NCBI RefSeq assembly: GCF_041248615.1
Contig: NZ_CP158426.1
Length of the DNA: 64,000 nt
Reading direction: 5' to 3' (one strand)
Source: Escherichia coli
GTDB taxonomy: Bacteria > Pseudomonadota > Gammaproteobacteria > Enterobacterales > Enterobacteriaceae
The notes under the pieces are model-generated. The model worked only from the letters and a program-made list of their open reading frames with translations. It searched no databases and was not told where the DNA came from. Position numbers and translations under genes: made by a program. Shown here one piece after another: positions 13,812 to 64,000 of this stretch; positions within the stretch are counted from its first letter, which is position 1; each line of letters opens with the position of its first letter.

Positions 13812-16716
<2,905 letters not shown>

Positions 16717-59307: not shown

Positions 59308-59493
59308 CTTCTTTGCGTATAGATTGAGCAAATCCCAAATAGCCGTTAAAATTATATGCATTATCACGCCGACAGGTGCATTACACGATGTCACGGTAGC
59401 GCCTGTACGGTAAACTATGCGGGTTTACGGTCAGTACCCACATAAATTGTGTGGTCTGGTCTCAATTTATTGACGAAGAGGATTAAGTATCTC

Positions 59494-59811
59494 ATGGCTG
59501 AATGGAGCGGCGAATATATCAGCCCATACGCTGAGCACGGCAAGAAGAGTGAACAAGTCAAAAAGATTACGGTTTCCATTCCTCTTAAGGTGTTAAAAAT
59601 CCTCACCGATGAACGCACGCGTCGTCAGGTGAACAACCTGCGTCACGCTACCAACAGCGAGCTGCTGTGCGAAGCGTTTCTGCATGCCTTTACCGGGCAA
59701 CCTTTGCCGGATGATGCCGATCTGCGTAAAGAGCGCAGCGACGAAATCCCGGAAGCGGCAAAAGAGATCATGCGTGAGATGGGGATTAACCCGGAGACGT
59801 GGGAATACTAA
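59494..59811 (+). CDS. metJ: methionine repressor MetJ (105 aa)
   Basis: Product [105 protein letters not shown]; track ORF over-extended by 15 codons. Confidence 0.97.
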
Positions 59812-59870
59812 AGCGGAAAAGAGCGGCGCGGAGTTAACCAGCCGCTTTTTTCATACATGGACGTTTAACG

Positions 59871-60479
59871 ATGAAAATCAGGCTACTGATCCTCAGCCTG
59901 CTGGTTTCTGTGCCTGCATTTGCCTGGCAACCACAAACCGGCGACATCATCTTTCAGATCTCTCGCTCATCGCAAAGTAAAGCGATCCAACTGGCGACCC
60001 ATTCCGATTACAGCCACACCGGTATGCTGGTGATACGCAACAAAAAGCCCTACGTTTTTGAAGCGGTCGGCCCGGTGAAATACACCCCGCTCAAGCAGTG
60101 GATTGCCCATGGTGAAAAGGGCAAATACGTTGTTCGCCGCGTTGAAGGCGGACTGAGTGTTAAACAACAGCAAAAACTGGCGCAAACGGCAAAACGTTAT
60201 CTCGGCAAACCGTATGATTTCAGCTTCTCGTGGAGCGACGATCGCCAGTACTGTTCGGAAGTGGTGTGGAAGGTTTATCAGAATGCGCTGGGAATGCGCG
60301 TGGGCGAACAGCAGAAGTTGAAAGAGTTCGACCTGAGCAGCCCACAAGTTCAGGCAAAGCTCAAAGAACGTTACGGCAAGAATATTCCGCTTGAGGAAAC
60401 GGTGGTCTCGCCACAAGCCGTTTTCGATGCGCCACAACTCACCACTGTTGCCAAAGAATGGCCGCTGTTTTCGTGGTAA
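59871..60479 (+). CDS. yiiX: DUF830 / permuted papain-like (NlpC/P60-type) protein YiiX with signal peptide
   Basis: 202-aa product MKIRLLILSLLVSVPAFAWQPQTGDIIFQISRSSQSKAIQLATHSDYSHTGMLVIRNKKPYVFEAVGPVKYTPLKQWIAHGEKGKYVVRRVEGG... Confidence 0.92.
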   Translation: MKIRLLILSLLVSVPAFAWQPQTGDIIFQISRSSQSKAIQLATHSDYSHTGMLVIRNKKPYVFEAVGPVKYTPLKQWIAHGEKGKYVVRRVEGGLSVKQQQKLAQTAKRYLGKPYDFSFSWSDDRQYCSEVVWKVYQNALGMRVGEQQKLKEFDLSSPQVQAKLKERYGKNIPLEETVVSPQAVFDAPQLTTVAKEWPLFSW

Positions 60480-60623
60480 TGGATGATAAAAAAAATAATT
60501 CCCGCCGTAGTCTGTTTGTTGCTTTGTAGTTGCACGACCTTTCCGCAAGCTGTCGCTCCGGTAAACGGTGATGCCTCCAATTAGTTGAATTAAGGATATA
60601 ATACTCGCTTTTAAGGTTGTTTC

Positions 60624-60896
60624 ATGGTCACAGTTAACCTTCATTGTCCCCGTTGCCAGTCCGTTCAGGTTTACCGTCACGGGCAGAACCCCAAAAGACA
60701 TGATCGATTCCGCGGCCGTGACTGTCACCGGGTATTTCAGCTCAGTTACTGTTACGAGCCCCGTAAACCAGGAGTTAAAGACCAAATCGCTGAAATGGCT
60801 TTCAACGGTGCCGGGGTTCGCTATACTGCCCTTACGCTGAAAATCGGCATTAATACAGTCATCCGAACTTTAAAAAACTCTCGCCACGAAAAATAA
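60624..60896 (+). CDS. insA: IS1-family InsA-like protein (divergent)
   Basis: 90-aa product MVTVNLHCPRCQSVQVYRHGQNPKRHDRFRGRDCHRVFQLSYCYEPRKPGVKDQIAEMAFNGAGVRYTALTLKIGINTVIRTLKNSRHEK; aligns with IS1 InsA (CPxC...MAxNGxGxRxTA...NTxxRxLKNS) but first Cys of the second zinc pair is Gly. Confidence 0.75.
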   Translation: MVTVNLHCPRCQSVQVYRHGQNPKRHDRFRGRDCHRVFQLSYCYEPRKPGVKDQIAEMAFNGAGVRYTALTLKIGINTVIRTLKNSRHEK

Positions 60897-60914
60897 CGTC
60901 ATCCCCGGTCGCTC

Positions 60915-61330
60915 ATGCTGATGTGGCACTCATCTGCGAACTTAGTCAGCAATGGAGCTTTGTCGGCAGTAAAGCGCGACAGCACTGGCTCTGGTACGTG
61001 TACAACACGAAAACTGGTGGTGTTCTGGCCTACACTTTTGGCCCCCGGACTGATGAAACCTGTCGTGAACTGCTGGCGCTGCTTACCCTTTTACCATCGG
61101 CATGTTGACCACTGACGAATGGGGTAGTTACGCTAGAGAGTTACCAAAGGAGAAGCATCTGACTGGTAAGATTTTTACTCAGCACATTGAGCGTAACAAT
61201 CTGACCCTGAGAACCCGAATCAAACGTCTGGCCCGCAGAACCATCTGTTTCTCGCGTTCTGTAGAACTTCATGAAAAAGTCATCGGTGCTTTTATCGAAA
61301 ATATATGTTCTACTAATTGGAGTCATCACC
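60915..61330 (+). pseudogene. insB: IS1-family insB-like transposase gene, frameshifted and lacking in-element stop
   Basis: Two overlapping frames (60923..61108 and 61102..61416) each match part of IS1 InsB (WxYVxxKxRQxWL...; ...KxxTQxIERxNLxLRxxxxRLxRxxxxFSxSVELHxKVIG); second frame reads through the right IR into flanking DNA. Confidence 0.7.
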
Positions 61331-61385
61331 CTTCTGATGAGCTTTCCTTGGATGATTACCAGACTGAATACACAGCCAAAGATTT

Positions 61386-61709
61386 TTACCTCATTCTGCT
61401 CTTTTTTCTCAAATGACATATATTATATTTTACATCATATTCATAGGCATATGACATTCCCCCGCCCCCCATTATGTCATTGTGGGTTGATGTTGGGCTT
61501 TCATAAAAAAATACATCTTTTTTTGAACTAGCATTAATTATATTTACTTTATATATTAAAATATTTTCTCCATCTGGAAATATTTTAGCCACACAATATA
61601 AAGCAGCTAAATCCGAATTACTTAAAAATATATTGTCATCACTCATAACTCCAGCCATTAAATGACTGGAGACTAAAGCAAGGAAATAACAACATTGTAT
61701 TACCTTCAT
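61386..61709 (-). CDS. candidate Rhs immunity protein (orphaned by IS5 insertion)
   Basis: 107-aa ORF from ATG at 61707-61709 (MKVIQCCYFLALVSSHLMAGVMSDDNIFLS...), SD AGGGAG 8 nt upstream; start lies 1 nt after the reconstructed Rhs toxin stop; very AT-rich; track ORF start at 61769 is inside IS5 and rejected. Confidence 0.5.
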   Translation of the reverse strand: MKVIQCCYFLALVSSHLMAGVMSDDNIFLSNSDLAALYCVAKIFPDGENILIYKVNIINASSKKDVFFYESPTSTHNDIMGGGGMSYAYEYDVKYNICHLRKKSRMR

Positions 61710-61710
61710 T

Positions 61711-61754
61711 TTAATTACTCCCTTGCCTGATAATTGTAACTCCATTCCCTTTAG
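61711..61754 (-). other. displaced 3' end of Rhs toxin reading frame (last 13 codons plus stop), separated from the rest of the gene by IS5
   Basis: Joining 62955 to 61754 across IS5 (one TTAG copy removed) continues the Rhs frame as ...NPKAKGNGVTIIRQGSN-stop, with TAA at 61711-61713. Confidence 0.6.
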
Positions 61755-62950
<1,196 letters not shown>

Positions 62951-64000
62951 TTAGCTTTGGGATTATATTTTAGATAGGTGTTATTTGGTGTTCCCAAGTA
63001 ACTACTGTATTCTTTTTTTCCCATTCCATTCATATAAGAATTCGTTAAATCTTTGCTTGAAAAATTTAGACTATCATAAACATCATTTTCTTTTGTTACT
63101 TTATTGCCTTTATCGTCAGAGTAAAAACCGTGAGTGTGATAATCGCCTACTCTCTCTGAACCTTCAGGGCATTTTATATTTCGCAAGTCTACACTATCAT
63201 TATCATTTGAACTTATCGGATTCATGGGGAAATATTCACCTTGCTTCTTACATATTAGCCCACCATATTCTTTATTCTCGTTAATTGATTCTCCATTACA
63301 CATTGCCAATGCAAATATTCCAATATCATCTATATTTTTTGATTTAAATTCATATAATCCTAATGGATCTATATTTGAGATCGGATTCAACGGATACTGA
63401 TAAAAATTCCATCCCCCCTTCAGCCCAATCGGATCCTGAGTGATATACCGCCCCTGCAGCGGGTCATAATAGCGGTGGCGGTTGTAATAGAGGCCGGACT
63501 CCTCATCATACTGCTGACCCGGCAGGCGGATGAGCTGCTGCAGCTGGTGCGGGTTCTCTTCATTCAGCAGGTTGCCCCATTCATCGTATTCTGCGCACCA
63601 TTCTGTTGCCCCTTCCGTGCTGACAAGCGCCAGCGGCAGGCCGCGATGGTCGCAGTGGTACAGGTGGATTTTTCGCGCCGGCGTGTACACCGGGTCCATC
63701 TGGTTTTGTATCTGCTCCACCGTCAGGCCGCACGATGCCAGCCAGCGGCGGCTTTCCTCACTCACCCGGTCAGCCAGGATTTCACTTTCCAGCCGGTCGA
63801 GCATCTGCACCAGCACCGGCGGGAACACCACACTGCCACCGTCTTCACCGCCGGACTGCTGAAGCGCATCCGCCAGGCTGCGGCGCTGCGTTTTCGCCAG
63901 CTCACCGGTGGCAGTTTCAACTCTGATGAGTGGCGTGAAGCTCCCCGGCTGATAAACCGTCTGGATGCGGGTTCTGTCGTTCTGTATTGTGGTCAGCCGG

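Follow-up and report, generated by a model that had tools for sequence, protein, structure and literature searches.

An inactive IS1H-family element at the outer border of the RhsF island of Escherichia coli, a likely remnant of an IS-associated deletion

A dead insertion sequence (IS) separates the conserved gene yiiX from the RhsF island in a 64,000-nucleotide stretch of Escherichia coli DNA (contig NZ_CP158426.1, assembly GCF_041248615.1), referred to here as the window. The element is a non-functional member of the IS1 family, 764 bp long, which occupies positions 60567-61330 on the + strand. It appears to be a fossil of the IS1H lineage, stranded at the outer border of RhsF. The history favoured here, with moderate confidence, is that it was left by an IS-associated deletion and that the element then decayed while the allele carrying it spread.

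The element is bounded by imperfect terminal inverted repeats of 23 bp starting with GGTGATG (a repeat search gave 26-nt arms, 88% complementary), and both of its ends align column for column with those of an intact IS1N. The left boundary is set independently by the uninterrupted allele of strain d1-58, which reads ...GCTCCGGTAAAC/AATGAC... where the window reads ...GCTCCGGTAAAC/GGTGATGCC.... Its length is close to the ~768 bp of the IS1 family, and the shortfall relative to the 768 bp of IS1N includes two internal 1-bp deletions. The internal layout is also that of the family: insA, encoding a zinc ribbon and a helix-turn-helix, is followed in the -1 frame by insB' (DDE_Tnp_IS1), with an A6C sequence at the junction. 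Repair of the two single-base gaps yields a 231-aa InsAB' that matches Zn_ribbon_InsA, HTH_Tnp_IS1 and DDE_Tnp_IS1 (PF03811, PF12759 and PF03400; E-values 2e-18 to 2e-69). The general roles of the IS1 zinc finger, helix-turn-helix, DDE motif and A6C site have been summarised elsewhere (PMC12428005).

The element is assigned to the IS1H family, the isoform name resting on the label 'IS1-like element IS1H family transposase, frameshifted' that the Prokaryotic Genome Annotation Pipeline (PGAP) gives to a 100%-identical sequence in NZ_LT599825.1. Reports on E. coli isolates routinely include IS1H (PMC10383658; PMC3032704). The window copy resembles it in label, length, IS1-type repeats, the -1 arrangement of insA and insB' with its A6C site and the three IS1 Pfam domains, and differs not in kind but only in being dead. 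Among relatives whose transposase is intact, IS1N of Shigella dysenteriae stands nearest, with 80% identity in nucleotides and about 85% in protein. IS1N has the same architecture, repeat ends and frameshift site, but it encodes an intact InsAB', is present in many copies and, on a S. dysenteriae plasmid that served as a control, is flanked by an 8-bp target duplication.

Alignment to intact IS1N, to an intact element of pO177B3 and to IS1A allowed the lesions of the window copy to be mapped. One 1-bp deletion frameshifts insB. The second falls in a run of A residues, and as a result the normal TAA (61314-61316, inside the right repeat) is lost and the last frame stays open to 61416. Codon 31 of InsA is GGC, which replaces a zinc-ligand Cys by Gly; it is TGC in IS1A, IS1N, the pO177B3 element and a pO157-type copy. 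In insB', the sequence ELDEQW has become ELSQQW. Asp108Ser presumably removes the first catalytic Asp of the DDE triad, on the strength of conservation and of Ohta et al. 2002, in which the Asp of ELDEQW is reportedly the first Asp of the IS1 DDE motif. In all, residues invariant in the three intact relatives are altered by Cys31Gly, Arg70Leu, Asp108Ser/Glu109Gln, Ala127Val and Arg188His. An intact IS1 transposase has four zinc-ligand Cys residues, the DDE residues and an uninterrupted insB'; here these are broken by Cys31Gly, by Asp108Ser/Glu109Gln and by the two 1-bp deletions, respectively, and the window copy is judged to be a pseudogene copy of the IS1 family rather than an active member.

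Much of this had been noticed in an earlier, sequence-only reading of the window, which described IS1-like inverted repeats, an InsA that had lost one zinc-ligand Cys, an insB frameshifted near 61100 and a frame running past the right repeat. All four features are present, and no intact InsAB' arrangement was found. The second 1-bp deletion and the change of Asp-Glu to Ser-Gln are, on the present alignments, additions to that description. The same reading regarded the element as an old, inactive copy, and the distribution of the lesions agrees: both frameshifts, Cys31Gly and the Ser-Gln change are common to the orthologous copies of O157:H7, ST648 and ECCRA-119, which are 98.2-98.8% identical, while Arg70Leu is private to the window strain. 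The shared lesions are judged to be older than the common ancestor of the copies in these phylogenetically distant strains. Furthermore, when 5.8 billion proteins were searched with the repaired protein, no full-length InsAB' exceeded 87% identity to it, and for this reason the IS1H lineage seems to have died out in its active form.

The 87-bp stretch between yiiX and the left end of the element contains the 5' remnant of a gene for a DUF2459/TIGR02117 lipoprotein, comprising 81 nt of the coding sequence called by PGAP (from 60486) together with an upstream in-frame ATG; its last nucleotide directly precedes the IS. In the window, a mutation has turned the start codon chosen by PGAP into ATA. 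To the right of the element, no similarity was found to the continuation of this gene (d1-58, L003 14148-14697). The 9-bp flanks, ccggtaaac (60558-60566) and cttctgatg (61331-61339), do not match, as the sequence-only reading had reported, and no direct target duplication of 8-9 bp could be found even when the boundaries of the element were shifted. When the partner 9-mers were sought elsewhere in the window, the sole match was the reverse complement of CCGGTAAAC at 14814, with ~0.5 matches expected by chance and no IS1H near it; a second IS1H copy is absent from the 64 kb. The neighbouring ISKpn26, a second control, has a clean 4-bp TTAG duplication and a matching empty site in ECCRA-119.

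The fate of the rest of the gene was followed in 5,426 complete E. coli genomes. A junction query separates three alleles of the slot between yiiX and rpmE. In the K-12 type, 13 bp lie between the yiiX stop codon and the rpmE terminator (L002 5227-5290 compared with L003 14061-14697). In 289 genomes, including B/BL21, HS, C and d1-58, the slot holds an intact 624-bp TIGR02117/DUF2459 gene, whose d1-58 product matches Pfam DUF2459. In the third, IS1H + RhsF, the gene breaks off after its first 81 nt, where the left end of IS1H directly begins (2,174 genomes). All three part at one nucleotide before the rpmE terminator, CAGGCACAAAAAAAGCGCC, and it is at this nucleotide that the other end of RhsF abuts the terminator. 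The remaining 550 bp of the DUF2459 gene are present only in the 289 genomes, once each and always adjoining rpmE, and no relocated 3' part was found in the IS1H-bearing genomes of this set. Thus, the missing 550 bp have been lost, not moved.

Klebsiella, Phytobacter, Enterobacter and an Escherichia sp. likewise carry the DUF2459 gene immediately downstream of metJ-yiiX, with rpmE-priA following it in the first three genera. Given this synteny, the DUF2459 layout is taken as ancestral, and the K-12 allele, found also in many other strains, is read as a precise deletion from the yiiX stop codon to the rpmE terminator. Some outgroup genomes carry extra DNA between the gene and rpmE, which makes the slot a recurrent insertion site. 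In Escherichia sp. MOD1-EC7003 (L021 9577-10438), for instance, other AT-rich DNA and an unrelated secreted-protein open reading frame (ORF) replace rpmE downstream of DUF2459, another sign that the slot between DUF2459 and rpmE accepts foreign DNA. The gene itself has been hit by IS1-family elements at least twice, since an independent IS1A insertion splits an otherwise intact copy in NZ_CM168000.1 (1658384-1659499).

By megablast, the IS1H element was found in 2,793 of the 5,426 genomes, 2,399 of which have a near full-length copy. The left junction occurs in 2,174 and the right junction (IS1H-spacer-dsORF-f3) in 2,160, about 40% of the set. The junctions are therefore a fixed allele and not the outcome of chance or of an assembly artefact.

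An IS that is retained, an original left flank (the DUF2459 gene to nt 81), an unrelated right flank and the loss of adjoining DNA are together what an adjacent deletion leaves behind. The sequence-only reading had proposed that the element was not a simple insertion, and this is upheld by the unrelated right flank and by the absence of the 550 bp from the IS1H-bearing genomes. It had also raised an adjacent deletion, which we infer here as the most economical reading of the missing duplication, with the reservation that no pre-deletion intermediate was found. Classical IS1-mediated adjacent deletion was reportedly described by Reif and Saedler in 1975. The window shares with it a retained IS, original target DNA at one flank, missing neighbouring DNA and the lack of a duplication; it differs in that the event would be ancient and is reconstructed, and in that recombination between two IS copies gives the same product.

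In the proposed history, an IS1H element, either still active or moved in trans by a sister copy, would have inserted in the DUF2459 gene or in the distal region of the Rhs island. A deletion from the IS end would then have removed the intervening DNA and created the present right junction. This could have occurred by IS1-type intramolecular transposition or by recombination between two IS1H copies in direct repeat; in both cases one IS would remain, with unrelated flanks and no target duplication. The element would subsequently have decayed neutrally, so that it would now do nothing, and the whole IS1H/RhsF cassette would later have passed between lineages through homologous recombination in the flanking core genes.

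This last step can be compared with the divergence of the cassette and its flank. Between strains IS1H differs at 7-12 positions per 764 bp and the adjacent yiiX at 13-32 positions per 609 bp. As there are fewer differences in IS1H than in yiiX, the IS1H/RhsF cassette traces back to a younger common ancestor than its flank does, and it probably spread between lineages by homologous recombination when the IS was already dead. The 3' end of yiiX (60267-60466) is hyperdivergent among IS1H/RhsF strains, with 8-20 differences per 200 bp as against 1-5 per 200 bp in the adjacent dead IS, a pattern suggestive of breakpoints of recombination, or of imported DNA, at the edge of the island.

Several observations weigh against the deletion history. 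A pre-deletion intermediate was found neither in the 5,426 E. coli genomes, nor in one genome per GTDB species, nor in metagenome contigs. No genome was found to combine an intact DUF2459 gene with RhsF, all 289 intact genes abutting rpmE. The Rhs-side flank was never encountered without IS1H in E. coli genomes or metagenome contigs; a scan of the contigs for this flank without an IS end gave just two, both of which carry the same junction with a point mutation. The contigs were scanned by exact 21-mer, from which a diverged empty site would escape. In other strains, RhsE and RhsC too have IS1H-like remnants distally, so the IS could have come along with Rhs DNA instead of inserting at this site. 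Finally, a 92%-identical paralogue in PK8261 has the same 1-bp deletion as that at 61086/61087; either a defective copy was still mobilised or a slip in the C-run recurred.

The remnants at other Rhs islands are as follows. A dead IS1H-like end lies at the distal, immunity-gene border of RhsE, as in UMNK88 (L006 2501-2632), with the junction present in 1,358 of the 5,426 genomes, and another at the distal border of RhsC, as in ETEC4070 (L103 1501-1666), in 18 genomes. The RhsE and RhsC fragments are 92-94% identical to the window copy, and on the opposite side each is truncated by an H-rpt/ISAs1 element. Neither remnant is present in K-12. A second IS1H-like place in NZ_LT599825.1 is probably the RhsE-linked remnant. 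An IS-Rhs junction common to RhsE/RhsC and RhsF was considered and rejected, the flanks being unrelated. Other degenerate copies of the lineage, 89-92% identical, are found in PK8261 (L005 1884-2646) and beside espP on a pO157-type plasmid (L104 1501-2044).

It has to be considered, as an unlikely but not negligible alternative, that IS1H was the terminal part of the incoming Rhs DNA and that an IS1H-dependent event placed the composite into the DUF2459 gene. The composite could have entered through a cointegrate followed by loss of the second copy, or through homologous recombination of the incoming IS1H with one already resident. Only the left junction would then be a transposition junction, and no duplication would be expected on the right. 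Co-arrival is in keeping with the dead remnants found distally at RhsE and at RhsC, and with the fact that the dsORF-f3 flank is never seen without IS1H in the E. coli genomes and metagenome contigs. However, the IS-Rhs junction sequences differ at RhsF, RhsE and RhsC and the orientation at RhsC is opposite, which means that the junction was not inherited from a common ancestor. Moreover, as the other end of RhsF sits at the nucleotide before the rpmE terminator at which the alleles diverge, under co-arrival the 3' part of the gene would have to have been removed by one more deletion, and a precise one. IS1-family elements prefer AT-rich targets, and this preference alone can explain a repeated association with the distal regions of Rhs islands, whose G+C content is 25-30%.

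With low probability, the dead IS1H-like ends at the immunity-gene borders of RhsF, RhsE and RhsC are traces of a part played by IS1H in Rhs assembly. Before dying out in E. coli, the lineage would in that case have brought in, pruned or swapped Rhs toxin/immunity tips, or fixed where the islands end on their outer side.

It is very improbable that the host has domesticated the insA ORF as a small regulator that binds DNA. Its 90 codons are open in the four complete-genome copies examined, but the zinc-ligand Cys has been lost, a copy from a metagenome is interrupted by a stop at codon 15, and the differences between orthologues are mostly nonsynonymous (His19Arg, Ala58Thr, Asp67Tyr, Arg70Leu and Glu90Lys). 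Judged by these substitutions, insA is without sign of constraint.

Next to no credence attaches to a simple IS1H insertion whose 9-bp duplication was later erased by point mutations: the element is old enough for many substitutions, but the divergence between orthologous copies, only about 1-2%, is far too small to have wiped out all nine positions, and the right flank, without any similarity to the gene continuation, together with the missing 550 bp refutes it.

The remaining alternative concerns gene order. The window runs metB, metJ, yiiX, the 87-bp stretch, the IS1-like element, an AT-rich reverse ORF, an IS5-like element and the 3' end of an Rhs gene, and in this the sequence-only reading saw a synteny break and a possible rearrangement, raising the question whether rpmE and priA are displaced. 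A rearrangement that displaced the two genes is not supported. The final 15.4 kb of the window match strain NRZ14408 (NZ_LT599825.1) at 100% identity. Beyond the IS, that genome has dsORF-f3, ISKpn26 and an Rhs gene interrupted by both ISKpn26 and IS1397, and directly after Rhs come rpmE, priA, cytR and ftsN in K-12 order and orientation; rpmE lies ~7.4 kb beyond the IS and ~8.2 kb beyond yiiX. The same layout, without the extra IS elements, is seen in O157:H7, ST648 and ECCRA-119. An inversion or translocation between two IS1H copies that moved rpmE and priA away from yiiX, to which only the mismatched flanks and the lack of rpmE within the window could point, is refuted by this order and by the absence of a relocated 3' part of DUF2459, there being moreover no second IS1H in the window, and can be given practically no weight.

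Instead, an island has been inserted between yiiX and rpmE with no break in gene order. It is identified as RhsF from the PGAP name 'RHS element protein dsORF-f3'. Rhs locus number 11 was placed between yiiX and priA by Jackson et al. 2009 (PMC2935791), and the window agrees with RhsF at that locus in position, Rhs core, DUF4329 tip, dsORF-f3 and AT-rich distal part. It differs in that the Rhs gene of the window strain is broken by ISKpn26 and IS1397. The positions of the element, its parts and its neighbours are collected in Table 1.

Table 1. Features of the IS1H-family element and of the adjoining DNA (window positions)
Feature	Position	Strand	Basis or remark
yiiX, last conserved gene before the variable segment	59871-60479	+	ORF list; PGAP in the identical strain; Peptidase_C92 for the corresponding gene
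5' remnant of DUF2459/TIGR02117 lipoprotein gene	60483-60566	+	alignment with the intact d1-58 gene (L003 14067-14690) up to the IS boundary
Left terminal inverted repeat	60567-60589	+	GGTGATGCCTCCAATTAGTTGAA; repeat-search pair; aligns with IS1N left end
insA ORF, 90 aa, open	60624-60896	+	Cys31Gly (60714-60716), Asp67Tyr, Arg70Leu
A6C (AAAAAAC) programmed -1 frameshift site, intact	60872-60878	+	column invariant against IS1N and the pO177B3 element
AGTCAG replacing GATGAG (ELDEQW to ELSQQW)	60944-60949	+	Asp-Glu invariant in IS1A, IS1N and the pO177B3 element
1-bp deletion frameshifting insB	61086/61087	+	relative to intact IS1N; new stop 61106-61108
Second 1-bp deletion, A4 where relatives have A5	61298-61301	+	alignment with relatives, translations
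Right terminal inverted repeat	61308-61330	-	repeat-search pair; aligns with IS1N right end
55-bp spacer, IS right end to dsORF-f3 stop	61331-61385	.	Rhs-element DNA, not DUF2459 sequence
dsORF-f3, outermost small RhsF ORF, G+C 25-28%	61386-61709	-	PGAP 'RHS element protein dsORF-f3'
ISKpn26 (IS5-like), recent simple insertion	61755-62949	+	PGAP; TTAG duplication 61751-61754 and 62950-62953
RhsF gene 3' part: core end and DUF4329 C-terminal tip, truncated by ISKpn26	62842-64000	-	Pfam RHS, DUF4329

On the Rhs side, dsORF-f3 stands at a constant 906 bp from yiiX in 10 distinct Rhs contexts. From its position it is presumably the immunity gene for the DUF4329 toxin tip. PGAP annotates the RhsF gene as 'RHS repeat-associated core domain-containing protein', partial, and the gene runs beyond the window. 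ISKpn26 is not part of the IS1H fossil and is absent from the metagenome contigs. Its insertion has cost the DUF4329 Rhs toxin tip the final ~15 codons, immediately upstream of dsORF-f3. Beyond the end of the window the RhsF core is also split by IS1397, an IS3-like element (L001 17535-18883), so that RhsF is broken in at least two places in the window strain. A scan of 59400-62000 against Rfam gave no match.

The element is already known, being a catalogued insertion sequence at a catalogued Rhs locus that is annotated as a pseudogene in thousands of genomes. The main use of the present analysis lies in correct annotation, with little beyond that: what had looked like a strain-specific rearrangement is an allele fixed across the species, at a variable slot that was already known, with a catalogued dead IS. 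Two modest by-products are the three-allele picture of this slot and the apparent extinction of active IS1H. The recurrence of IS1H-like remnants at Rhs borders could, in addition, be of interest to students of Rhs island assembly.

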